From the NCBI RefSeq assembly GCF_036365525.1, contig NC_090375.1, positions 136,250,982-136,314,981 of the forward strand: a DNA stretch of 64,000 nucleotides. Reading direction: 5' to 3'. The translations under genes were made by a program, and so were the position numbers. The DNA is from Heterodontus francisci. Lineage: Eukaryota. How positions within the stretch are numbered: the first letter of the stretch is position 1; each line of letters starts with the position of its first letter. This document shows, piece after piece, positions 135 to 43,019 of the stretch. Below the pieces are notes generated by a model that saw nothing but the letters and a program-made list of their open reading frames with translations, ran no database searches and had not been told where the DNA came from.

Positions 135-2142
135 AAGTTAAGGCAGTCAACCGTGGATACCAAAGGAAGTTAAGAATTGTATAATATTAAAAGAAAGGCT
201 TATTAAGTTGCCAGAAATAGTAGTAAACCTGAAGATTGGGAGGATTTTAGAATACAGCAAAGGATGTGAATAAACTGATAAAGAAAGGGAGAGTAGAATA
301 TGAATGTAAGCTAGCAAAAAATATAAAAACGAACTCTAAAAGCTTCTACAGGTACGTGAAAAGGAAATGTTTGGCTAAGACAAATGCGTGTCCATTACAG
401 AGAGTCAGGAGAATTTATAATGGGGAATAGAGAAATGGCAGAGAAGCTAAATGATTACTTTGTGTCTGTCTTCACTGAGGAAGGTACAACAAATCTCCCA
501 GAGAATCCAAGGGATTAGGGGAGAATGAGGAATTGAAGGAAATTAGTATTAGTAAGGAGTTGTATTGGAGTTATTAATGGGGCTGAAGGTTCATAAGTCC
601 CCAGGACCTGATATTCTACATCCCAGAGAGTTGAAAGAAGTAGCTATGGAGATAGTGGATGCATTGGTGATCATCTTTCAAAATTCTATAGATTCTGGAG
701 CGGTTCTTGCAGATTGTAAGGTCACAAATATCACCCCACTATTTAAGAAAGGAGGGAGAGAGAAAACAGGGAATTACAGATCTGTTAGCCTTACATCAGT
801 CATTGGGAAAATGCTAGAATCTATTTTAAAGGATGTGATAAATGGATACTTGGAGAATAATGATCTGATTGGGCATAGCCAACATGGATTTATGAATGGG
901 AAATCATGTTTGATGAACCTGTTGGAATTTTTTGAGGATGTTGCTAACAGAATTGATAAAGGGGAGTCAGTGGACATGGTAAACTTGGATTTTCAGAAGG
1001 CTTTTGATAAAGTCCCCCACAGGAGGTTGGTTAGTGAAATTAAAGCACATGGGATAGGAGGTGCTATACTGGCATGGATTAAGGATTGGTTAACAGGCAG
1101 AAAGCAGAAAGTAGGAATAAACGGGTCATTCTCGTGTTGGCAGGCTGTGTTTAGTGGGGTACCACAGGGATCGGTGCTTGGACCCCTTCTGTTTACAATA
1201 TATATTAATGATTTGGATGTGGGGACCAAATGTAGTATTTCTAAGTTTGCGGATGAGACAAAACTAGGTTGGAATGTGTGTTGTGAGGAAAATGCAAAGC
1301 GGCTTCAAGGGGTTTTGGATAGACTTAGCGAATATAATGTGGAAAAATGTAAAGTTATCCACTTTGGTAGGAGGAATAGATGTGCAGAGTATTTCTTAAA
1401 TGGTAAGAGATTAGAAAGTGCAGATGTTAAAGGGGACCTGAGTGTCCTTGGCTGTAAGTCACTGAAAGCTAACATGCAGATGCAGCAAACAATTCAGAAG
1501 GCTAATGGTATGTGAGCCTTTATCGCAAGAGGAATTGAGTACAAGAGTAGTGAAGTCTTGCTTCAATTGTATAGAACCTTGGTTAGACTGCACCTGGAGT
1601 ACTGTGTGCAGTTTTGGTCCCCTTACCTTAGGGAGGATATTATTGCCATAGAGGCAGTGCAACAAAGGTTCACCAGACTTGTTCCCGGAATGGCGGGACT
1701 GTCCTATGAAGAGAGATTGGGGAAACTGGGCCTGTATTCCCTAGAGTTTTGAAGAATGAGAGGTGATCTCATTGAAACCTACAAAATGCTTAAAGGGATA
1801 GAGAGGGTAGATGCGGGTAAGATGTTTCCCTAGTTGGGGAGTCTAGAACCAGGGGACACAATTTCAAAATAAAGGGGAAGCCACTTAGGATAGAGATGAG
1901 GAGATATTTCTTTACTCAGAGGGTTGGGAATCTATAGAATTCTCTACCCCAGAGGGCTGTGGAAGTTCAGTCACTGAGTATGTTTAAATCAGAGATTGAC
2001 AGAATTCTAAATACAAATGACATAAGGGGATATGAGGATAGTGTGGGAAAAAGCCATTGAAGTGGAAGATCAGCCCTGATTGTATTGAGTGGCGGGGCAG
2101 GTTCAATGGGCTGAATGGCCTACTCCTGCTCCTATGTTCCTA
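135..2142 (+). mobile_element. CR1-clade LINE (HER1-like), 5'-truncated, decayed ORF2 plus 3' UTR
   Basis: ORF 565..1515 has the CR1 RT motifs KSPGPD, NYRSVSLTS, QHGF, DFQKAFDKVPH, GVPQGSVLGPLLF and FADE (degenerate FADD). The C-terminus LYRTLVRLHLEYCVQFWSP follows at 1558..1752, and the element ends GGCCTACTCCTGCTCCTATGTTCCTA. Confidence 0.95.
565..1515 (+). pseudogene. CR1 ORF2 reverse transcriptase fragment (catalytic FADD changed to FADE)
   Basis: Translated ORF track; flanking parts of ORF2 are broken by stops and frameshifts. Confidence 0.9.
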
Positions 2143-5132: not shown

Positions 5133-6640
5133 CTAGATGCTGGAAATCTGAAATAAGAACAGTAAAGTTTTGAAATGCTCTTTGGTCAAGCAGCACGGGT
5201 GGAGAAAGTAACGAAGTTAACATTTCAGGTTGAAATGGATAAGTTAGAGATGTAACAGTTTTTAAATAAGTACACGGGCAGGGAAAAGTGTTGAGGGGAG
5301 GAAAGGACAAAATGAAAGTTCTGTGATCAGGTGGATGGCAGGAGTGATTAAATGACAAAGTGATGATATTGCATGCAACTCCTGCTCCTTTACCATGCAA
5401 GTCCAGAGATGCAACACCTACCCTCTCATTTTAATTCTCCCTTCCCACTATCTAATACCCCAAACACCCCTTTCAGGTGAAACAGTTATTTACTTGTACT
5501 TCTTTCACTTTAGTATATTGCATTTGCTACCCATGATGTGGTCTCCTCTACATTGGGACAATCAAATGCAGAGTGGGTGATCGCTTTGCTGAACACTTCC
5601 ATTCAGTCCACAAGTGTGACCCTGAGCTTTTGTTCACTTGCCATTTTAATTTTCCATCCCACTCCCACTCTGACCTCTCTATCCTCAGCCTCTGGTACTG
5701 ATCTAATGAGCTGAATGGAAGCCTGAGAAACAGCAACTCACCTTTGGAGCAGGCAATTTATAGCCACCCAGAGTCAATATCGAGTTCAACAATTTCATAT
5801 TATAACAACTGCTCCCAATTTTTTTCGGGCAGCAAATACTGGTCATACTTCTGCTGTTGCCATTTATACCACCTGTAGGCCCATTGTTGGAGAATTTTCT
5901 GAACTTTGCTAATTATTACTTAACTTTGTAGAAATAGGAAAACAGGACGCAGCTTGTAGCTAACCTAACCAATGGTCAGGAAATGTAGACAGAGCAACTG
6001 ACCACAATCATCTGGCTTAGGAAGGGACAGAGCTCATGATGGATTTTGGGGAAGTGGACGCAGACTGTTCGTTACTGACTCTTCCGCTTTTATCATGTTT
6101 GTGCAACCTAGCCAGAAGTAACGGCCAGGTATAGTCTGGAGTGGGCATTGAATTAAGGAACTAGCGTGTTATGCTCGAACTAACGCTCTACTGACCTCGG
6201 ACTTTGCAAAGGGCACAGAGCTGCAGGTGGTCTTGTGGTTGTCCTGTGGTTTATGCTTAATTGTGAAACTGCTAGCTCTGCTTCTTTTATACTATATAAG
6301 TCCACGGCGATTTGTAGCTCGGGGGAGTAGCACTGGACCGCCTTTAGGTAAGGTGTGCAGTCCCATGATATCATGCAATAAAGTGTTTGTTCTCAACGTC
6401 TGAGTCCGGAGAATTTGTTCAGCAATTGGGCACAATCTGGATTTTCTCCAACACCCATCTTTTTTTCTTTACTTGTCCCATTACCACATCCTTTTATCTT
6501 GCACGATCATTCCTTTTGTCCTTTTAAATTACTCCCACTTTCCATCCTATCACAGAACTTCCCTTTTCTTCTTTCCCACTGCCCACCACCTTTCCTGCCT
6601 CTGTAATTACTTCAAAACTCTAACTACTTTCAGTTCTTCC
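5133..6640 (+). mobile_element. Penelope-like element remnant: inverted terminal-repeat piece, GIY-YIG endonuclease region and 3' region, split by a solo LTR
   Basis: About 5513-5610 translates VYCICYP*CGLLYIGTIKCRVGDRFAEHFHSV (GIY-YIG of PLEs). 5133-5240 matches, in inverted orientation, the repeat AGATGCTGGAAATCTGAAATAA seen at 14.7, 18.4, 28.7 and 42.0 kb. Confidence 0.8.
5885..6453 (+). mobile_element. Solo LTR (569 bp)
   Basis: Begins TGTTGGAGAA and ends TTCTCCAACA (10-bp inverted termini). 5-bp TSD CCCAT (5880-5884, 6454-6458). TATATAA near 6293 and AATAAA near 6377. Confidence 0.92.
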
Positions 6641-8000: not shown

Positions 8001-8788
8001 TGTCATGAAAATGTGCGAGGTCCAAGAATGATTATTTGAATCCACCAGCTGGAAACCTGAATATTAAACTGTGTAGTTGAAGGAGGTTTCTATTTGTTTT
8101 TTCCAGACAATTCCCTTCCCACAATAGCTCCCCTGTCAGGCTTAAGTAAGTAATCACGATGAACCACTCAAACCTTGCAAGCTTCGAACTCCTGTCTGCT
8201 GGATGTGATTACTTACTTAAGCCTGACAGGGGAGCTATTGTGGGAAGGGAATTGTCTGGAAAGAACAGATAGAAACCTCCTTCAACTACACAGTTTAGAG
8301 AGTACTTTCTGGACAGAACAGATCGCGAACTCCCTCGAAGGAATTCAGTCACATTGCTGTCTCCCGGAGAACCACTGAATCAGCGTCCACCTCTTCAAAC
8401 CAGAAGATTCTGGACAACTGAGTTCAATCTGGTCCCAGCTGAGTCACCAACCTCCATAGACTGTATTTCCCTGGACTCTAATTCAACCAATCTATCCTTC
8501 CCCCCCCCCCCCCCCCCACCTCCGTAACCTATTTCTGTGTGTGTGTGTGTGTTTCACAATTAGAGCATATTTTTATTGCTTTTAGTCAGTTTAAGTGCTA
8601 TAAAGTTAACCTCTTTAAACTTGAGAAAACCTGTCCGATTGGTTCTTTTAATAATCACGGCACATAAACAAGTTAAACACTCAATGAATTGGCAAGTATA
8701 GCGACTAGAAAAAAATAAATCTGCCGTGGTCAAACAAGGAGAGGGAAAAGAGGGAAGCCCTTCAACCCTTCCTCACCTGATCGTAACA
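8001..8788 (+). repeat. 5' LTR of the Gmr1-type element
   Basis: TGTCATGA...TCGTAACA termini. Shares GCTGGAAAC(C/T)TGAATATTAAACTG, GCCTGACAGGGGAGCTATTGTGG and GTGGTCAAACAAGGAGAGGGAAAAGAGGG with 18397-19429. Confidence 0.85.
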
Positions 8789-12699: not shown

Positions 12700-14075
12700 C
12701 ACTCCTCCCATAAAGCAAAATCCCAATCACCTAGGTCCCGGGAAACTGACCCAGGTTTGGGAGGAAATTCAGTACATGCTGGAGCACAAGCTGATATAGC
12801 CCAGCAGAGCAGCTGGAGTTCCCCAGCTGTGCTCTTGTCCAAGCCCGATGGCTCAACAAGGTTCTGCATTGACTACAGGAAGGTTAATGCCGTGACCAGA
12901 GCTGACTCCTACCCAATTCCCTGCCTAAAAGACTATATCAATAGAGTAGGAAATACAACCTATATAACCAAAATAGACTTGTTAAAAGGATACTGGCAGG
13001 TTCCCTTAACCACTCAAGCTAAAGAGATCTCAGCTTTTGTCACCCAAGATGGTATATTCCAGTGCCGTATGATGTCATTTGGATTAAGAAAAATGCCCCA
13101 GCTATCTTCCAAAGGCTGATGAACCAGGTAGTGATTGGCCTACCCAACTGTATAGTGTACCTGGATGATCTGTTAGTGTAAAGTGACACTCCCCCCAGGT
13201 GTCACTGTACACTAACAGATCATCCAGGTACACTATACAGCTGGGTAGACCAGTCACTACCTGGTTCATCAGCCTTTGGAAAATAGCTAGGGCATTTTTC
13301 TTAATCCAAATGACATGTTAGACACCCTCTTCCGACATGCTGGTAAATCTTGCAAAGAGCGAATTCGCTAAAGCCCAGGTAAGCTACCTAGGACGAGTTG
13401 TGGGTTAAGCTGTTGGTGGGGGCAGGGAGGTGGTGGGGGAGGTGCTGTCCAGGGCAGCAAAGGGACAGGTATTGATGGATTTTCCTGCTTCCCATGACCA
13501 AAGGGGAAATAATACAATTTTTGGGGATGTGTGGGTTTTACCACAAGTTTGTCCCAAACTTCACCATAGCCACCCCACTGACAGACTTGTTACAGAAAAG
13601 AGAGAAGGTAGTGTGGTCAGGGAGGTGCCAAACAGCTTTTAAGAGGCTAAAAGCTATCGTAACCAACGAACCGGTGCTGGCAGCTCCAAACTTTAACAAA
13701 CCATTGAAAATGGCAGTTGATGCTAGTGACGTAGGGGTAGGTGCTAGGCTGCTCCAAGATGATGAGTCGGGCATTGAGAGAATCGTTGGATGGTTCTCCA
13801 AAAAATTAAACAAACATCAAAAGAGATTCTGTACTGTGGAGAAAGAAACTTTGGGACTGTTACTGGCTCTCAAGCACTTTGAACTATATGTCTGAAATGG
13901 ATGTAGAGAGACTGTAGCTTATACTGACCACAATCCTTTGACATTTGTGCAGAAATTCCAAGACTAGAATGCAAGGCTATTTCGGTGGAGCTTGCTTTTG
14001 CAACCTTACCACCTAAAGATTGCTCACATTGCAAGGAAAAACAATGTGATAGCTGATGCTTTATTCAGAGTCTAA
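12700..14075 (+). pseudogene. Gypsy reverse transcriptase and RNase H, disrupted
   Basis: SSWSSPAVLLSKPDGSTRFCIDYRKVN, IDLLKGYWQVPL, VYLDDLLV, FLGMCGFY, AVDASDVGVGA, EKETLGLLLALKHF, YTDHNPL and NVIADAL. Confidence 0.92.
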
Positions 14076-14702
14076 CTCAGCACAGAATCATACGAACATT
14101 TGAACATACGAATTAGAACAAGAGCAGGCCACTCGGCCCTTCTAGCCTGTTCACCATTCAATAAGTTCATGGCTGAACTGATTACTCCACATTTCCACCT
14201 ACCCCTGATAACCTTCTGCCCCGTTGCTTATCAAGAATCTAACTACCTCGGCCTTAAACATATTCAAAGACTCTGCTTCCACCGCCTTTTGAGGAAGAGA
14301 ATTGCAAAGACTCACGACCCTCTGAGAGAAAAAAGTTCTCCTCATCTCTGTCTTAAATGGGTGACCCCTTATTTTTAAACAGTGACCCCTAGTTCTAGAT
14401 TCTCCCTCAAGAGGAAACATCCTTTTCACATCCACCCTGTCAACACCCTTCAGAATCTTATATGCTTCAATAAAATCGCCTCTTACTCTTCTAAATTCCA
14501 GTGGCTACAAGCCTAGCCTGTCCAATCTTTTCTCGTAAGACAGCCTGCCCATTCCAGGTATTAGTCTAGTAAACCTACTCTGTACTGTCTCCAACGCATT
14601 TACATCCTTCCTTAAACAAGGAGACCAGTCCTGTACGTAGTACTCCAGATGTGGTCTCACCAATGCCCTGTATAGCTGAAGCATAGCGTCCCTACGTTTG
14701 TA

Positions 14703-14928
14703 AAAGCAAAATACTGCGGATGCTGGAAATCTGAAACAAAAACAAGAAATGCTGGATTCACTCAGCAGGTCTGGCAGCATCTGTAGAAAGAGAAGCAGAG
14801 TTAACGTTTCGGGTCAGTGACCCTTCTTCGGAACCCGAAGAAGGGTCACTGACCCGAAACGTTAACTCTGCTTCTCTTTCTACAGATGCTGCCAGACCTG
14901 CTGAGTGAATCCAGCATTTCTTGTTTTT
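14703..14928. mobile_element. Palindromic non-coding Penelope-like terminal-repeat insertion
   Basis: 96-bp inverted arms 14736-14831 and 14835-14930 with loop AAC. TSD GTCCCTACGTTTGTA at 14688-14702 and 14929-14943. Confidence 0.9.
14800..14834 (-). ncRNA. Minimal hammerhead ribozyme motif (PLE-type)
   Basis: The minus strand reads GTT-CCGAAGA-AGGGTCACTGACCC-GAAAC-GTT-AAC: core C(C)GANGA, stem II GGGTC/GACCC, GAAA, loopless ACGT stem III. Confidence 0.7.
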
Positions 14929-17900
14929 GTCCCTACGTTTGTATTCAATTCCCCTCGCGATAAGCAAAAACATTCTATTAGCTTTCCTAATTACGTGCTG
15001 TACCTGCATACTAACCTTTAGTGATTCATGCACTAGGACACCCAGATCCCTCTGCATCTCAGAACTCTGCAATCTCTCACCATTTAGATAATATGCTTCT
15101 TTTTTATTCTTCTAGCCAAAGTGGATAATTTCCCACTTTCCCACATTATACTGCATTTGCTAGGTCTTTGCCCACTCACTTAACCTACCTATATACCTTT
15201 GTAGCCTCCTTATGTCCTCATCACAAGTTATTTTCCTATCTATCTTTGTGTCATCTGCAATTTTAGCAATCATACCTTCTGTCCCTTCATCTAAGTCATT
15301 TATATAAATTGTAAAAAGTTGAGGCCCCAGCACAGATCCCTGTGGCACACATTACAGCTTGCCAACCAGAAAATAATCCATTTATGCCTACTCTCTGTTT
15401 CTTGTTAGCTAGCCAATCTTCTATCCATGCCAATATGTTACCGCCTACATCATGAGCTTTTATTTTCTGCAATAACCTTTGATGTGGCACCTTATCAAAT
15501 GCCTTCTGGAAATCTAAGTTCAGTACTGGTTCCCCTTTATCCACAGCACATGTAACTCCCTCAAAGAACTCCAATAAATTGGTTAAACATGATTTCCCTT
15601 TCACAAAACCACGTTGACGCTGCCTGATTACCTTGAACTTTTCTAAATGCCCTGTTATAATGTCTTTCATAATAGCTTCTAACATCTTCCCTAAGACAGA
15701 TGTTAAGCTAACTGGCCTGTAGTTTCTTGCTTTCTGTCCCCCTCCCTTTTTGAATAAAGGAGTTACATTCGCTATTTTCCAATCTAACAGAACCTTCCCC
15801 AAATCTAGGGAATGTTGGAGAATTAAAGCTAACGCATCAACTATCTCACTAACCACTTCTTTTAAAACCCTAGGATGAAGTCCATCAGGACCTGGGGTCA
15901 GCCTGCAGCTCCCACAATTTGTTCAGTATCACTTCTCTGGTGATTATAATTTTCTTGAGTTCCTCCCTCCCTTCCATTTCCTGACTTACAGCTAATACTG
16001 GAATGCTACTTGTATCCTCAGTAGTGAAGACCGAAGCAAAATACCTGTTCAATTCATTTGCCAACTCCTTATTATCCATTATTAATTCCCCAGACTCACT
16101 TTCTATAGGACCAACGCTCATTTTGTGAACTTTTCTTTTTTAAATACCTATAGAATCTATATAGCTTTCTCTCGTATTCTAATTTTTACCTTCCTTATCA
16201 ATCTTTTAGTCATTTGTTGCTGTTTTTTTTATATTCTGTCCAATCTTCTGACCTGCCTCCCATCTTTGTGCAATTATAGGCTTTTTCTTTAAGTTTGATA
16301 TTATCTTTAACTGTTTTAGTTAACCACGGATATCGGGTCCCACCCTTGGCATTTTTCTTTCTCATTGAATAGTATCTATTCTGTGTATTCTGAAATATCC
16401 ACTTAAATGTCTGCACTGCATCTCTGTTGACCTATCCCTTAAGCTGATTTGCCAGTTCACTTTAGCCAGCTCTGCTTTCATGCCCTCATAATTGCTCTTA
16501 TTTAAGTTTAAAATACTTGTCTTGGAACAACTCTTCTCTCCCTCAAACTGAATGTAAAATTCAATCATACTATGATTTCTGGGGCACCTTAACTATGAGG
16601 TCATTAATTAATCCTTACTTTTTGCACAATACCAGGTCTAGTATAGCCTGCTCTCAGGTTGGCTCCATAATGTATTGTTCCAAGAAATTATCCCAAAAAC
16701 ATTCTATGTACTCCTCATCAAAGTCTCTCTGATTTTTCCAGTCTATATGTGGGTTAAAATCCCCTATAATTATTTCTGTATCTTTCTGACAAGCTGCTAT
16801 TATTTGTTCCTTTATACCCCATCCTACAGTGTGGTTAATGTAAGGTGGCCAGTACACCACTCCCACAAGTGCCTTTATGATTTCTCATCTCTACCCAAAC
16901 TGCTTCTACATCCTGGTCTTCTGAATTTAGGTCATCCCGATCTATGGCGCTAATACCATCATTAATTAACAGAGCTACCCCTCCACATTTTCCTAGCTTC
17001 CTGTCCTTCCTAAATGCCATGTACCCTTCAATATTCAGGTCCCAATCTATGTCATCCTGCAGCCATGTCTCTGTAATAGCTATCAGATTGTACTTATTTA
17101 TTTCTATTTGCGCACTCATTTCATCTGTTTTGTTTTGAATGCTACGTGCATTCAGATACAAAGCCTTTAGTTTTGTCCTTTTATTATTTTTGTAACCTCT
17201 AGCCTTATCTGTTGATTTACTCTTGGATTTGTACTCTCTGTCCCTTCCTGTCACAGTCTGTTTATCATTTCCCATATCAATACCTTTCTCTCTTGCCTTG
17301 TCTGTACTCCTTGATCTACCACATCTTCCCAAATTTGATCCCTTGCCCCCACTATTTAGTTTAAAACCCTCTCTACTTCCGTAGTTATGCGGCTTGCTAG
17401 AACAGCAGCCTCAACACGGTTCAGGTGTAGACCATCCCAATGGTACAGCTCCTACTTTGCCCAGTTCTGGTGCCAGTGCCCCACGAACCGGACCCCACTT
17501 CTACCACACCAGTCTTTGAGCCACGCATTAATTTCTCTAATCTTATTTGCCCTATGTCAATTTGCCTGTGGCTCAGGTAATACTCCAGAGATTATTACCT
17601 TTGAGGTTCTGCTTCTTCATTTGGCACCTAGTTCCTCATACTGACTATGCAGAGCCTCTTTCCTTGTCCTGCCTATGCCATTGGCACCTACATGGACCAC
17701 GACGACTGGCTCCTCCCCCTCCCACTGTAAGTTTCTCTCCAGCCCTGAGCAGATGTCCCGAACCCTGGCACCGGGCAGGCAACCCAGCTGTCTGGACTCT
17801 CGCTCTTTGCTGCAGAGAACAGTGTTAATCCCCCAACTATACTGTCCCCTACTACCACTACATTCCTTTTTTCTCCCTCCACTTGAATGGATTCCTGTAC

Positions 17901-18396: not shown

Positions 18397-19429
18397 TGTC
18401 ACAAAAACGTGTTCAGTCCAGGGAAGGTTTTTTTAATCTAATATAAAAGCAAAATACTGCAGATGCTGGAAATCTGAAATAAAAACAAGAAATGCTGGAA
18501 ATACTCAGCAGGTCTGGCAGTGGAGACAGAAGCAGAGTTAATGTTTCAGGTCAGTGACCCTTCTTCAGAACTGACAAATATTAGAAATGTAAAAGATTTT
18601 AAGCAAGTAAAGTGGGGGGTGGGGCAAGAGATAACAAAAGAGAAGGTGTTGATAGGACAAGGTCACAGAGAATAACTGACCAGAAGATCATGGAACAAAA
18701 GCAAACAGTATGTTAATGGTGTGCTGAAAGACAAAGCGTTAGTACAGAGCGGTAAAGTGCAAAGCACCCCAAGTACAAACATTTAAAAAAATGTAAAAAA
18801 CAGAAACAGTGGGTAGGTACAGTAGAAACAAACCAAACACACTAAAAAAAACTAAAATAAAATAACCAAATAAAAAAGAAAAAAATAATTTCTTTAATCC
18901 TCTGGCTGGAAACTTGAATATTAAACTGGTGCAAGCTTTGACCTCTGTCTGCTGTTTGTGATTACTTAGTTCAGCCTGACAGGGGAGCTATTGTGGAAGG
19001 GAACTTTCCGGAAAGAACAGACAGAAAAACTCCATCAGCTGCACAGTTTAGAGAGAACTTTACAGAAAGAACACACACAAGTCTCAGGACCACTGAATTT
19101 AGCCTGAAGCCAATTGAATTACCAACTTCCACAGACTGTGTATCCCTTTTATTTCTCTGGACTCTAATTTGACCAATCTATCCTTCCCAAATCTGTAACG
19201 TGTGTGTGTGTGTAAGTTAGAGCGTATATTATTTTTCTTAGATACGTTTAAGTACCATAAAGTTAACCTCTTGTCTGATTGGCTCTTTTTATGATCACGC
19301 CACCTAACCAAGTTCAACACTCACTCAATTGGCAATTATATCCACTAAAAAATAAATAAATCTGTTGTGGTCAAACAAGGAGAGGGAAAAGAGGGGAGCC
19401 TTTTGATCCCTCCTCACCTGTTCATAATA
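18397..19429 (+). repeat. 3' LTR of the Gmr1-type element, interrupted by a Penelope piece
   Basis: Starts TGTCACAAAA after a purine-rich GGAGG and ends CTCACCTGTTCATAATA; homologous to 8001-8788. Confidence 0.8.
18443..18890 (-). mobile_element. Penelope-like terminal-repeat fragment with hammerhead motif
   Basis: Same repeat family as 14703 and 28740. At 18536-18572 the minus strand reads AGTT-CTGAAGA-AGGGTCACTGACCT-GAAAC-ATT-AACT. Confidence 0.85.
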
Positions 19430-27825: not shown

Positions 27826-28739
27826 ACCCATTATGTAGCTGATAGAACACTGTCATGGACTATTTTATTAAAAACATCAGCAATTATAAACTGGATTGAA
27901 AAAATTAGGTTGCTAATGCAGAAAAGGAAAGAAAAACAGATTTGTTTATGCTTTAAAAAGTCTAGCTTTATCTCAAGTTAAAGCATAGTTGCTTTTAAAT
28001 ATCCATTCCAATTATAATTATAATGCATTATTATTGTTGTTTGAGTCAAAACAATCACAAATTATAAAGAAAGCCTTCTGGGAATATTGGATTTAACTGT
28101 AATGGACAAAACAGATGCAGATTCATTAGGACAGCAGGAGTCAGCTAAAGAATAATCCATTCAGGAAGAACAATAAATGATGCATTTTTAACTCTTCTGA
28201 TTACTTGCATGAATATGAATTTCCTGCCCACTGAGATAAATGAAAGTGAATTGACTGACTTAGTTTTGCAGGGCTTTATGGGAAGATGTTCTGTGTCTGT
28301 CCTGCTGTCAAGCTAACTTTCCTTTCACCAGAATGTATTCCTTTCATCAGAATGTATCAGAAACTCCTGATATACTATCAGTGATTTTCCATTACATGCT
28401 GATGGTGGCTTAAGTCCCTTACTGCTCCTGTAAATTCAAAACATTTAAGTTTATATACAGTTTAAATTAGGTGAGCAAGTTAATTTGTTTGTTGAACATG
28501 TTATCATAATAGTAGCCATGTTATTTTCCAGTGATGATCGATGACTATCAATCGCTAATTCTTCAGTGCAGATGGCATCATGTACCAACTATAATTGCCT
28601 AGTTGTTGACAGCCATCATGGCGCTTATCACCATTGAAAGAAACAAATTGACTAAAAATGGTATAAAGCTGTCCAAGGAGCTCCATAACATATAAGGGAT
28701 GATTCTCCAACTTACATCAACCAGCAAGGAATGTTGCCT

Positions 28740-29430
28740 CAAACAAAAACAAGAAATGCTGGAATCACTCAGCAGGTCTGGCAGCATCTGTGGAAAGAGA
28801 AGCAGAGTTAACGTTTCGGGTCAGTGACCCTTCTTCGGAACTGACAAATATTAGAAAAGTCACAGATTATAAGCAAGTGAGGTGGGGGTGGGGAAAGAGA
28901 TAACAAAGGAGAAGGTGCAGATTGGACCAGGCCACATAGCTGACCAAAAGGTCACTGAGCAAAGGCAAACAATATGTTAATGGTGTGTTGAAAGACAAAG
29001 CATTAGTACAGATTAGGTGTAAATACACTGAATATTGAACAGCAGCAAGTGCAAACCAGGTTTTTTTTCAGGTTTGCACTTGCTGCTCTTCAATATTCAG
29101 TGTATTCACACCTAATCTGTACTAATGCTTTGTCTTTCAACACACCATTAACATATTGTTTGCCTTTGCTCCGTGACCTTTTGGTCAGCTATGTGGCCTG
29201 GTCCAATCTGCACCTTCTCCTTTGTTATCTCTTGCCCCACCCCCACCCCCACCTCACTTGCTTATAATCTGTGACTTTTCTAATATTTGTCAGTTCCGAA
29301 GAAGGGTCACTGACCCGAAACGTTAACTCTGCTTCTCTTTCCACAGATGCTGCCAGACCTGTTGAGTGATTCCAGCATTTCGTGTTTTTGTTTCAGATTT
29401 CCAGCATCCACAGTATTTTGCTTTTATTTT
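28740..29430. mobile_element. Large palindromic non-coding Penelope-like insertion
   Basis: Arms of about 317 bp (28741-29057 and 29071-29393) with a 13-nt spacer. 14-bp TSD AAGGAATGTTGCCT at 28726-28739 and 29431-29444. Confidence 0.92.
29292..29328 (+). ncRNA. Minimal hammerhead ribozyme motif (PLE-type); mirror copy on the minus strand at about 28807-28843
   Basis: AGTT-CCGAAGA-AGGGTCACTGACCC-GAAA-CGT-T-AACT; stem I AGTT/AACT, stem II GGGTC/GACCC, predicted cleavage after 29324. Confidence 0.72.
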
Positions 29431-29620
29431 AAGGAATGTTGCCTGTCAGCTGCAGATACCAGGACATCAGGGGCACATCACCCTCAATTTTCCAATATTA
29501 ATGGTTGATGGTGAAGCTCCAAACTAGCAGCAATTATTTATTTCATAGGCCCTTTATTCTTAATCAGCCCTACAATCTTAAAAAAAAATACATATATATT
29601 CAAATCATTCCAAAGCTATA

Positions 29621-37867: not shown

Positions 37868-40594
37868 GATGATCCAGCTCGGCCTCCTCCTGGAGTCCCC
37901 AGTATCACAGATGCCAGTCTTCAGCCAATTCAATTCACTCTGCGTGATATCAAGAAACAACTGAAGGCACTGGATACTGCAAAGGCTATGGGCCCTGACA
38001 ACATTCCAGCAATCGTACTGAAGACCTGTGCTCCAGAGCTTGTGGCGCGCCTAGCCAAGTTGTTCCAGTACAGCTACAACACTGGCATCTACCCTGCAAT
38101 GTGAAAAATTGCCCAGGTATGTCTTGTACACAAAAAGCAGGACAAATCCAACCCGGCCAATTAGTGCCCTATCAGTCTTCTCTCAATCATCAGGAAAGTG
38201 ATGTAAGGTGTCATTGATAGTGCTATCAAGCGGCACCTGCTATGCAATAACCTGCTCAGTGATGTTCAGTTTGGGTTCCGCCAGGGCCACTCAGCTGCTG
38301 ACCTCATTACAGCTTTGGTTCAAACATGGACAAAAGAGCTGAACTCCAGAGGTGAGGTGAGGTGAGAGTCAATGTCCTTGACATCAAAGCAGTATTTGAC
38401 CGAGTATGGCATCAAGGAGCCCTAGCAAAACTGGAGTGAATGGGAATCAGGGGGAAAACTCTTTGCTGGTTGGAGTCATACCTAGCTCAAAGAAAGATGG
38501 TTGTGGCTGTTCGAGGTCAATCATCTCAGCTCCAGGACATCATTGCAGCAGTTCCTCAGGGTAGTGTCCTAGGCTCAACCATCTTCAGCTGCTTCATCAA
38601 TGACCTTCCTTCAATCATAAGGTCAGAAGTGGGGATGTTCGCTGATGATTGCACAATGTTCAGTACCATTCGTAACTCCTCAGATAATGAAGCAGTCTGT
38701 GTAGAAATGCAGCAAGACCAGGACAGTATCCAGGCTTGGGCTGATAAGTGGCAAGTAACAAGCAACATTCACACCACACAAGCGCTAGGCAATGACTACC
38801 TTAAACAAGAGAGATTCCAAACATCCCTCCTTGGCATTCAATGGCATTATGATTGCTGAATCCCCCACTAACAACATCCTAGGGGTTACCATTGACCAGG
38901 AACTGAACAGGAGTAGCCAGAAATACCATGGCTACAAGAGCAGGTCAGAGACTAGGAATCCTGCAGCGAATAACTCACTCCTGACTCCCCAAAGCCTGTC
39001 CACCATCTACAAGGCACAAGTTAGGAGTGTGATGGAATTTGCCCGAATGGATGCAGCTCCAACAACACTCAAGAAGCTCGACACCATCCAGTACAAAGCA
39101 GCCCGCTTGATTGACACCCCATCCACAAACATTGACTCCCCCCATCACCGACGCACAAGATGCACTGTAGCAATGCACCAAGGCCTCCTTAGACAGCACC
39201 TTCCAAACTGGCATGGATTAAAGATTGGTTAACAGGCAGAAAACAGAGAGTAGGAAAAAACTGATTATTCTTGCGTTGGCAGGCTGTGATTAATGGGGTA
39301 CCGCAGGGATCAGTGCTTGGGCTCCAGCTGTTCAATATATATCAATGATTTGGATGTGGGGACCAAATGTAATATTTCCAAGTTCGCAGATAACACAAAA
39401 CTAGGTGGAGGAAGATGCAAAGTGGCTTCAAGGGGATTTGGACAAACTTAGTGAGTGGGCAGGAACATGGAAGATGGAATATAATGTGGAAAAATGTGAG
39501 GTTATCCACTTTGGTAGGAGGAATAGATGTGCAGAGTATTTCTTAAATGGTAAGAGATTAGAGAGTGTAGATGTACAAAGGGACCTAGGTGTCCTTGTCA
39601 ATAGGTCACTGAAAGCTAACATGCAGATGCAGTAAACAATTAAGAAGGGTAATGTTATGTTAGCCTTTATCGCAAGAGGATTTGAGTACAAGAGTAGTGA
39701 AGTCTTGCTTCAATTGTATAGAACCTTGGTTACCACACCTGAGTACTGTATGCAGTTTTGGTCCCCTTACCTTAGGAAGGATATTATTGCCATAGAGGGA
39801 GCGCAACCAAGGTTCACCAGACTTGTTCCCGGAATGGCGGGACTGTCCTATGAAGAGAGATTGGGGAAACTGGGCCTGTATTCCCTAGAGTTTTGAAGAA
39901 TGAGAGGTGATCTCATTGAAACCTACAAAATGCTTAAAGGGATAGACAGGGTAGCTGCAGGTAAGATGTTTCCCTAGTTGGGGAGTCTAGAACCAGGGGA
40001 CACAATTTCAAAATAAAGGGGAAGCCACTTAGGACAGAGATGAGGAGAAATTTCTTTACTCAGAAGGTTGTGAATCTTTGGAATTCTCTACCCCAGAGGG
40101 CTGTGGAAGCTCAGTCACTGAGTATGTTTAAATCAGAGATTGACAGAATTCTAAATACAAATGACATAAGGGGATATGAGGATAGTGTGGGAAAAAGCTT
40201 TTGGAGTGGATGATCAGCCCTAATCGTATTGAATGGCGGATCAGGCTCGATGGGCTGAATGGCCTACTCCTGCTCCTACGTTCCTATGTTCCTAAACCGG
40301 CAACCTCTACCACCTGGAATGGCAAGGGCAGCTGATACATGGGAACACCACCACCTGCAAGTTCCTCTCCAAGTCACACACCATCCTGACTTGGAACTAT
40401 ATCGCCATTCCTTCACTGTCGCTGGGTCAAAATCCTGAAACTCCCTTCCTAATGGCACTGTGGGTGTATCTACCTCACATGGACTGCAGCGGTTCAAGAA
40501 GGCTGCTCAACATCACCTTCTCAAGGGCAAGTAGGAATGGAGAATAAATGCTGTCCTAGCCAATGACGCCCTCATCCCATGAAGGATAAAAAAA
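37868..40594 (+). mobile_element. CR1-group (Zenon-like) LINE, RT and 3' end, interrupted by a CR1 at 39209-40294
   Basis: KAMGPDNIPAIVLKTCAPEL, VPQGSVLGSTIFSCFINDL, MFADDCTMF and IYKAQVRSVME; ends CATCCCATGAAGGATAAAAAAA. Confidence 0.85.
39209..40294 (+). mobile_element. 5'-truncated CR1 LINE, same subfamily as 135-2142
   Basis: Closely similar to 1070-2142 by eye; (TATGTTCC)n tail; short AAAC duplication at the junctions. Confidence 0.92.
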
Positions 40595-42033: not shown

Positions 42034-42034
42034 A

Positions 42035-42856
42035 AAGTAAAAGCAAAATACTGCAGATGCTGCAAATCTGAAATCAAAAACAGAAAGTACTGGAAATACT
42101 CAGCAGGACTGGCAGCATCTGTGAAGAAAGAAACAGAGTTAACGTTTCAGGTCGATGACCTTACATCAGAACTGGCAAGGGTTAGAAATGTAATAATTGG
42201 AGTCATAGTCTGAAATTGTTGAATTCAATGTTGAGTCCAAAGGGCTGTAGAGTGCATAATTGGAAAATTAGGTGCTGTTCCTTGAGCTTGCATTGAGCAT
42301 CACTGGAACATTGCAACAGGCCGAGGACAGAATGCAAGCATGGGAGCAGGGTGGTGAATTAAAATGGCAAGCAATCGGAAGCTCGGGGTGATTCTTGCAG
42401 ACTGAGCAGAGATGTTCTGCAAAGCAGTCACCTAACCTACGTTTGGTCAACCCAGTGTGGAGGAGACCGCATTGTGAGCAGTGAATACAGTATACTAAAT
42501 TGACAGAAGTACAAGTAACTTGCTGCTTCACCTGGAAGGAGTGTTTGGGGCCTTGGATGGTGAGGAGAGAGGAGGCAAAAGGGCAGGTGTTACACCCACT
42601 GTGATTGCATGGGAAGGTGCCATATGAAGGGGACGAGATGTCAGGGTGATGGAGGAGTGGACCAGGGTGTTGTGGAGGGAACAATCCCTTTGGAATGCTG
42701 ACAGGGAAGGGAGGGGAAGAAGTGTTTGGCAGTGGCTGGATGATCCTTTGGATGTGGAGGCTGGTGGGGTTGAAAGTGAGGACAAGGAGAACCCTGTCGC
42801 AGTTCTGGGAGGAAGGGGAAGGGGTGAGGGTAGAGGTGTGGGAAATGGGCCAGATA
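42035..42856 (-). mobile_element. Penelope-like element: GIY-YIG endonuclease region and terminal repeat with hammerhead motif
   Basis: ORF 42268..42684 contains CNTCPF...TCTSVNLVYCIHCSQCGLLHTGLTKRRLGDCFAEHL. At 42137-42173 the minus strand reads AGTT-CTGATGT-AAGGTCATCGACCT-GAAAC-GTT-AACT. Confidence 0.88.
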
Positions 42857-43019
42857 CCTTGCTTTCACGCCCACATTTCTGTCCGCGGTTTGCTACCACT
42901 CCTGAACCAGCTACTTACTGGGTGGTCACCTCCCAATCTCTTGCTCACTGTGGGACAGTGGCAGGCCTCTACCTGAGGGCTTAATGTTCCATGTAGGTGT
43001 GACTTGTACACAGGAGTAA

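Follow-up and report, generated by a model that had tools for sequence, protein, structure and literature searches.

A 64,000-nt stretch of the Heterodontus francisci genome (RefSeq assembly GCF_036365525.1, contig NC_090375.1, positions 136,250,982 to 136,314,981), hereafter the window, contains a short palindromic insert, denoted A, that consists of two opposed copies of a repeat we assign to the terminal repeats of Penelope-like elements (PLEs), with hammerhead ribozyme cores at the inversion centre. In window coordinates, which are used throughout, A and its host sequence comprise the following features:

14688..14702, no strand: left target site duplication (TSD), 15 bp, the final 2 nt of which agree with the family sequence immediately past the tail
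14703..14834, minus strand: left copy, 132 nt; GTT stem-I 5' strand, 94-nt shared part and tail; starts 1 nt past the predicted start site
14703..14737, minus strand: PLE tail, 35 nt, carried by the left copy alone; the tail end corresponds to the family 3' hot spot at 29425
14703..14780, minus strand: possible start of a PLE open reading frame (ORF), inferred; an ATG preceded by an acceptor-like pyrimidine tract opens 26 codons that extend into the tail
14798..14836, minus strand: left copy's hammerhead, of minimal type I; the core, with U4C, starts at 14831, stem II has 5 bp, stem III (ACGT) is loopless, the GUU cut is predicted at 14803/14802, and stem I has 5 bp (2 bp of it from the other arm)
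14832..14834, no strand: 3-nt spacer at the inversion centre, identical with the left copy's stem-I 5' strand
14835..14928, plus strand: right copy, 94 nt; begins at hammerhead C3, lacks stem I and tail, and terminates at the family 3' hot spot for tail-less ends (equivalent to 29389)
14929..14943, no strand: right TSD, 15 bp; its first 2 nt are microhomologous to the element
14500..15922, minus strand: host sequence split by A, the reverse transcriptase (RT) region of a decayed retrotransposon of the non-LTR kind (LTR, long terminal repeat; Pfam RVT_1), putatively CR1-like by its motifs

Anatomy of the insert and its repeat family

The insert proper spans 226 bp between direct repeats of 15 bp that, according to a repeat finder, are 100% identical. 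The 15-mer occurs once each in two paralogous long interspersed element copies of the window (1540-1554 and 39687-39701), and the left and right flanks of A, aligned separately to two window paralogs, overlap by exactly 15 nt; therefore, the direct repeat is a true TSD, as the initial annotation, made from the letters of the window alone, had proposed. The same annotation described the whole insert as a perfect palindrome with 96-bp arms that looked identical, a 3-nt loop and no coding sequence, a description that holds only in part. The repeat finder indeed delineated arms of 96 nt (14736-14831 and 14835-14930) that are 100% complementary and separated by 3 nt, but 2 nt of each arm are microhomology with the TSD, and only 191 of the 226 bp are palindromic, the remaining 35 nt (14703-14737) being a one-sided tail. 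Thus, A is composed of a 132-nt minus-strand copy (3 nt, 94 nt and the 35-nt tail) lying opposite a 94-nt plus-strand copy of one and the same repeat family. The three letters between the arms, AAC, read GTT in reverse complement and as such make up the 5' strand of the left copy's stem I; the right copy has no GTT. As for coding capacity, the ATG frame of the left copy, which remains open for 26 codons into the tail (14780-14703), is possibly the start of a PLE ORF. Two acceptor-like pyrimidine tracts ending in CAG are present at 29330-29349 and 29380-29396 of a sister insertion, the first directly 5' of the ATG of this 26-codon frame; PLEs are known to have 5' introns, but no donor site was identified for these tracts.

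Four further insertions of the repeat are present in the window, namely B (28726-29444), C (about 18440-18900), D (42034-42864) and E (5135-5806); the features of B and D are:

28726..29444, no strand: sister palindrome B; 14-bp TSD at 28726-28739 and 29431-29444, arm length about 320 nt, a tail at the right end alone, centre at 29057/29071
42034..42864, minus strand: older related copy D; decayed PLE linker and GIY-YIG endonuclease fragment, then the family's terminal repeat, here with a tail and a core that reads CUGA

The arms of B align with 309 identities, 6 mismatches and 6 gaps, and its inversion centre lies about 225 nt upstream of the hammerhead. Over the stretch that corresponds to A, the arms of B differ at 2 of 94 sites, compared with 0 of 109 paired sites in A, a value that allows a divergence of up to 2.7% at the 95% level. 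The insertion of A, previously labelled very recent, can hence be dated in relative terms only: judged by arm divergence, A is younger than B, yet not necessarily very recent. The identical arms of A carry in common two letters that neither arm of B has. A limited search found no TSDs for copies C, D and E. In E, a minus-strand terminal repeat faces a plus-strand PLE endonuclease fragment that is 71% like D over 419 nt; E seems to be a third inverted insertion, now decayed and centred near 5390.

The assignment to PLEs comes through D, the terminal repeat of which is 83% identical to that of A over 136 nt. The ORF fragment of D produced 1941 phmmer matches, and all seven long homologues tested matched RVT_1 plus GIY-YIG at the C-terminus, the latter above the curated cut-off in one of the seven. 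In an alignment of D with full RT and GIY-YIG proteins, the C-x4-C-xx-C linker is invariant and a cysteine/histidine motif surrounds the GIY-YIG domain; the three named close matches that were looked up come from a skate, a shark and a ray, in line with a cartilaginous fish as host. Pfam yielded no direct match on the D fragment, a word-index search for this fragment among longer proteins found none, and the DNA pattern of the family had no matches in the viral and metagenome contigs searched. Two skate and shark gene models, P0002 and P0003 (a DUF4518 protein and a 'receptor-transporting protein 3-like' protein), carry this PLE endonuclease fragment at their C-termini and are either annotation artefacts or exonised PLE pieces. 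A itself displays the features of an insertion of an endonuclease-bearing (EN+) PLE, that is, a terminal-repeat hammerhead motif (with U4C), an inverted 5'-truncated neighbour copy, a one-sided 35-nt tail and a TSD. It is a new example of a known insertion shape, the architecture itself not being new, and the original view of A as a young Penelope-like terminal-repeat insertion with a minimal hammerhead was borne out. A was also considered as a miniature inverted-repeat transposable element or other DNA transposon, and this was rejected given the asymmetric ends, the TSDs of 15 and 14 bp (in A and B) and the fact that most family copies are not inverted pairs.

Scanning the window with a descriptor of minimal type-I hammerheads produced four matches (14835 and 29296 on the plus strand, 14831 and 28838 on the minus strand), compared with none in 30 shuffles. 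In each of the four, stem II comprises 5 bp, A9 is followed by an additional base, stem III (ACGT) has no loop and the site is GUU, and in all four the core reads CCGAAGA, that is, U4C with respect to the canonical CUGANGA. Hammerhead cores are accordingly present on opposite strands at the inversion of A, as first noticed, but they carry U4C, and the right one lacks stem I (0 bp, against 5 bp in the left copy); an intact core of the form CUGANGA...GAAA...UH is found in neither copy of A. The proposed search with hammerhead models came out empty: at the gathering threshold Rfam had no matches in the window, and its hammerhead models did not appear even at E<=10. The matches to SNORA69, mir-350, mir-3127 and P35 obtained at E<=10 are below threshold and were dismissed as reflecting the hairpin. 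The U4C change reduces hammerhead activity considerably in vitro, although it is tolerated in a viroid (PMC3088659, as far as its consulted text goes), and the ribozyme of A is likely a passenger, weak or inactive because of it. The initial annotation set the back-to-back cores beside the known cleavage of PLE hammerheads as dimers. However, a transcript of either strand of A is predicted to form a 94-bp hairpin of about -191 kcal/mol that buries its one sense core; with both cores U4C and on opposite strands, the right one devoid of stem I, and this hairpin in the transcript, a cis dimer would be unavailable. In the same predictions stem II is stable and the stem-I bases are weakly paired, and a single copy of the repeat folds no better than shuffles (z -0.67 and -0.08).

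Ends and inversion points of family copies

To characterise the family beyond the window, four read or contig runs of the same species (X21, X22, X1 and X5) were mapped on the right arm of B, not on locus A itself. Runs with small word shares were left aside, X5 excepted. Among reads at least 88% like B, T occupies the U4C position in 26% (X21), 21% (X22), 31% (X1) and 26% (X5), figures that are biased by the C-bearing reference; U4C is thus found in about 70-80% of mapped reads or contig depth, as opposed to none of the 29 sense-strand hammerheads of other PLE loci (see below). In X21, where 50,541 of 11,989,820 reads mapped, we considered the best 24 of 1254 loose-end rows and the best 15 of 151 joints; the table of strand-switch joints does not distinguish the head-to-head from the other orientation.

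The top loose ends of X21 lie, on the 5' side, before 29292 (994 reads) and before 29293 (1100) and, on the 3' side, behind 29389 (2177), 29425 (1679), 29428 (2670) and 29431 (2294). The letters before 29292/29293 are mixed (agreement 0.33-0.34), as would be expected of unrelated target sites, and AT-rich. Position 29292/29293 is a real 5' end hot spot of the family and corresponds to the first base of stem I; the early impression that the 5' edge of the ribozyme is a special end point was therefore correct. A's outer ends coincide with the two family 3' hot spots, with 2 nt of target microhomology at each, and its arms start 1 and 4 nt inside the 5' hot spot. About 20% of the reads at 29292/29293 end there, whereas strand switches exactly at this site number only 14 against 2094 loose ends (0.7%); therefore, solo copies that begin with the first base of stem I are common and A-like palindromes are a small minority, most family copies not being inverted pairs.

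Seven of the best 15 of 151 joints in X21 switch strands: 29126/29153 (56 reads), 29324/29394 (54), 29322/29322 (46), 29289/29315 (19), 29292/29293 (14), 29293/29377 (14) and 29301/29333 (3). In six of these seven, one side falls within 29289-29324, at or within the hammerhead, and 29126/29153 lies far upstream. Read depth is, however, 2-3 times higher over the hammerhead part, capture is uneven and library artefacts are possible, so the clustering of joints at the hammerhead is an enrichment at most. The junction of A itself (29293/29296 equivalent) is not among the best 15 of 151 joints. Inversion centres had been expected to be fixed at the core, an expectation contradicted both by B, which inverts at 29057/29071, and by the best-supported joint, 29126/29153.

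Several joints deserve mention in their own right. In the X1 contigs, joint 29126/29153 (29137-29192 equivalent) has a depth of 86, compared with 10-19 for the other listed X1 joints, and may be one palindrome junction present in several copies. The X1 contigs also contain head-to-tail joints of a 130-132-nt unit (29425->29294, 29425->29296 and 29428->29298, two contigs each), which resemble retrozyme dimers. Furthermore, joints with one side at stem III or at the predicted cut site (29322, 29323, 29324, 29325 and 29327) possibly constitute a minor hot spot derived from cleaved RNA or from fold-back at the local palindrome.

A predicted promoter and the origin of the palindrome

A TATA-like box and an initiator-like motif, at the consensus spacing of a core promoter, are found at the 5' hot spot in the right arm of B:

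29263..29296, plus strand: predicted core promoter; TATAAT at 29263-29268 and initiator-like TCAGTTC, the A of which, A29292, is the read 5' hot spot and the first stem-I base

The TATAAT motif starts 29 nt before A29292, and a TATA and initiator pair of this kind occurs at 15 of 127,900 window positions, although the pair was chosen after seeing the site. An independent test drew on metagenomes, from which the best 80 of 540 confirmed loci of PLEs were taken. Here the descriptor found 29 sense-strand hammerheads in 26 of the 80 loci and 2 opposite-strand ones, with none in shuffles, while missing at least one hammerhead (in locus L019). Removal of one of these 31 rows near a contig end and of 6 duplicates left 24 hammerheads for the motif test. 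A TATA motif starts between -44 and -33 from C3 in 9 of the 24, against 0-2 in each of nine other bins and a shuffle mean of 0.96; an initiator A is located at -15 to -4 in 13 of the 24 (shuffle mean 3.4), and neither count was reached in any of 5000 shuffles. The strict form TCAKT is present in 8 of the 24, versus a shuffle mean of 1.1. Among individual loci, the upstream/5' repeat of L022 (21-150) starts at -9 of C3, and L019 (47-210) contains a fold-back at -4/+9 of C3, at the hammerhead edge, whereas that of L007 (about 10-270) lies inside its ORF. In the open-access literature, to which our search was confined, neither a promoter at the hammerhead nor the 5' hot spot was found; TATA and initiator motifs in a rotifer pseudo-LTR (pLTR) are described without reference to the ribozyme in the consulted part of PMC3846280.

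Because RT proceeds 3' to 5' on RNA, a stall at the ribozyme fold would end copies at the 3' side of the fold, on the 3' strand of stem I or II, and ribozyme cleavage would make copies start at 29325, whereas the main peak is elsewhere. The 5' hot spot therefore likely arises from run-off at the 5' end of the RNA rather than from a stall, and the inversion centre of A likely lies at the ribozyme edge because the RNA of the element is predicted to start there. On these grounds, we propose that A is a pair of head-to-head copies of the hammerhead end of a PLE, generated when both nicked target strands were primed near the 5' end of the RNA and both cDNAs ran off at the predicted start, a reading to which we assign an even chance of being right. 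Given the observed anatomy, two 3' sites, 5' hot spot and promoter-spaced motifs, the priming and joining steps that we infer would be as follows. A PLE RT-endonuclease acting in trans would cut the target with a 15-nt stagger; of the two 3'-OH ends, one would prime where the tail ends and the other 35 nt further in, at the tail-less site, with 2 nt of microhomology assisting in each case. PLE reverse transcription starts internally, about 100-135 nt along the transcript, so that if priming took place on the 5'-proximal copy of the two sites the run-off cDNAs would measure only 97-135 nt. Joining of the cDNA 3' ends after a 3-nt trim, followed by fill-in, would leave identical arms and a one-sided tail. 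The product, devoid of the upstream TATA-like box, would likely be a dead end that is made afresh each time. A precedent is provided by a purified Anolis PLE protein, which nicks each of the two target strands and extends it, begins reverse transcription internally at two sites on either side of the tail, probably acts as a dimer according to prediction, and does not depend on ribozyme cleavage for insertion (PMC11167929, in the portion consulted).

Several observations weigh against this scenario. The predicted start at A29292 comes from motifs, the only RNA-like run consisting of contigs, which are unable to show starts, and the site also resembles a splice acceptor. The TATAA match is absent from copies C and D; 15 of the 24 other PLE hammerheads have no TATA motif and 11 have no initiator, and after collapse to 16 clusters TATA is found in only 5 and the initiator in 8. 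The Penelope promoter of Drosophila virilis is TATA-less, with a start 46 nt before a 75-nt intron (PMC2377424), and the end of this intron maps to the 5' end of helix I (PMC4209133), insofar as the relevant parts of these papers describe it. The ORF of the A/B subfamily was not found, nor was any RT domain of this PLE family in the window, and the link to RT and GIY-YIG runs through the homologues of D. Finally, the offsets between arms are small (0-32 nt in 5 of the 7 listed strand-switch joints, 3 nt in A and 13 nt in B), and joint 29289/29315 has a 6-nt overlap at a natural inverted repeat, both of which fit fold-back priming at least as well.

Fold-back would share the PLE origin and the 5' run-off: a single cDNA would snap back with a loop of 3 nt, an untemplated C added opposite the cap perhaps assisting, then copy itself and be resolved at the tail-less site. 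We regard this as possible, if doubtful. It accommodates well the identity of the arms of A, with their two letters absent from both arms of B, the small offsets, and the joints at a local palindrome (29322/29322) and an inverted repeat (29289/29315), although identical arms and small offsets do not by themselves separate the two routes, and library preparation, too, can yield fold-back reads at local palindromes. In both X21 and X22 the most frequent letter before 29292 is G, a weak hint of cap copying, and self-priming of PLEs has been proposed, on an antisense template (PMC3846280, consulted in part). What fold-back alone leaves unexplained is the end of the short arm at a family 3' hot spot (29389, 2177 reads), the kind of site at which RT starts in another PLE in vitro. 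The initial annotation had instead invoked an RT that halts at the hammerhead fold and folds back, so that the RNA structure would set the inversion point. Six of the seven listed strand-switch joints have one side in 29289-29324, and L019 also inverts at its hammerhead. This explanation is nevertheless improbable because the hot spot lies at the 5'-most letters, the last of the 5' strand, which are reached only once the fold has been unwound and the whole motif copied; in addition, the predicted stem-I bases are weakly paired while stem II is stable, the 2-3-fold read depth over the hammerhead part raises joint counts, B and joint 29126/29153 invert far upstream, and L007 inverts inside its ORF. 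For the Anolis element, 5' truncation of the template is reported to shorten the RT product (PMC11167929, in the text consulted), in line with a product length that follows the RNA 5' end.

The remaining explanations carry still less weight with us. The palindrome or the solo 132-nt unit might be a non-autonomous element resembling short interspersed elements or retrozymes, copied as a unit from an internal promoter, which is in essence the self-propagating minimal unit first suggested for A. Short copies with a defined 5' end are abundant, the X1 contigs contain head-to-tail joints of a 130-132-nt unit (three rows, two contigs each), and non-LTR retrozymes have been reported as PLE derivatives, also in one cartilaginous fish (bioRxiv 10.64898/2026.07.22.740005, seen in part). 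We hold this very improbable, given that the junction of A is missing from the best 15 of 151 joints, strand switches at 29292/29293 are as rare as stated above, the centres of A and B differ, the unit has no TATA-like box and a transcript of A would be a 94-bp hairpin. There is a similarly slim chance that the AG at 29292-29293 is a 3' splice site and the short copies derive from RNAs whose first exons, supplied by the host, differ as a result of splicing. Immediately before stem I there are indeed a pyrimidine tract, a candidate branch site and CAG, and the D. virilis intron ends at helix I (PMC4209133, same portion), but no skip joint to 29294 is among the listed rows, the flanks before 29292/29293 are mixed and AT-rich rather than one exon, and other PLEs have promoter-spaced TATA and initiator motifs. 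An origin at the DNA level, through later inverted duplication of a single insertion or as an assembly artefact, is extremely improbable: both outer ends adjoin one perfect TSD that is single in the paralogs and both coincide with family 3' hot spots, and B has the same design with diverged arms. In its favour, the read evidence comes from the arm of B, not from locus A, and two fold-backs unrelated to this family exist in LTR-element sequence of the window. One of these (13072-13316; 118-nt arms, 9-nt spacer) lies in a decayed LTR-retroelement RT region (Pfam RVT_1), and the other (8065-8297; 98-nt arms, 37-nt spacer) in an LTR-like repeat seen by eye again near 18920-19400; neither contains a hammerhead.

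Returning to run-off of doubly primed cDNAs, A itself would be an ordinary PLE by-product, and it is the family pattern that could matter. We tentatively suggest, with somewhat less than even confidence, that in many PLE families the core promoter is positioned to begin transcription at the first bases of the hammerhead, and that reverse transcription, starting internally just downstream, constantly generates ribozyme-only copies of 100-135 nt along with palindromes. If so, the masses of solo minimal hammerheads in animal genomes would be run-off products, the ribozyme would cut about 30 nt downstream of the cap and could in this way take the cap off and shut down translation or retrotransposition, and a young shark-like subfamily, having spread with a U4C core, would have evaded the ribozyme that it carries. 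Were transcripts to start at the first ribozyme base, cap removal would be a concrete and assayable role for the ribozyme, with the U4C subfamily as a natural loss-of-function comparison. Double priming can be tested directly against fold-back at the genomic level in a family of high copy number that has sharp 3' ends at two sites, a sharp 5' end at one, and numerous short palindromes.

Comparison with known systems

The sources compared here were consulted in part, and the statements about them apply to the portions seen. PLE insertions are known to combine a 5'-truncated copy in inverted orientation with a tail of 30-40 bp on one end and a TSD (PMC8557442, PMC3846280, PMC2377424), and PMC8557442 treats the formation of the inverted ends and the role of the hammerhead as open questions. 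EN+ PLE insertions with an inverted pLTR resemble A in the head-to-head 5'-truncated copy, the one-sided 30-40-nt tail, the TSD of variable length, the hammerhead in the terminal repeat and the possible ORF start inside it (same three sources). A differs in that it is only 226 bp long, has nothing upstream of the ribozyme, and both of its arms stop within 3 nt of one family 5' hot spot. Copy D shares with Neptune-type PLEs, which have a Zn-finger-like RT-endonuclease linker (PMC8557442), the C-x4-C-xx-C linker and the cysteine/histidine motif around GIY-YIG. This likeness, by linker motif, is a feature of D, a member of an older subfamily about 83% identical to A, and not directly of A.

The minimal type-I hammerheads of metazoan PLEs (PMC4209133) have in common with those of the window the loopless palindromic stem III, the extra nucleotide after A9, the G10.1-C11.1 pair and the short stem I; the window motifs differ by U4C (4 of 4 here versus 0 of 29 at other PLE loci) and by U at position 17. 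In the same survey such motifs are mostly solo, and opposite-strand pairs 100-700 bp apart are described. The Anolis Poseidon element PAc, studied in vitro (PMC11167929), likewise has two 3' end sites bracketing the tail, and its insertion does not need cleavage; unlike for the family of A, the main text consulted contains no discussion of inverted copies or of a 5' hot spot. Non-LTR retrozymes (bioRxiv 10.64898/2026.07.22.740005) are, like A, short non-coding units derived from PLEs with a type-I hammerhead. Classification of A as such a retrozyme was rejected, the same-strand head-to-tail tandem being absent from A and rare tandem joints occurring only elsewhere, in the X1 contigs: retrozymes form head-to-tail tandems with their cores on one strand, whereas in A the copies stand head-to-head and the cores lie on opposite strands.

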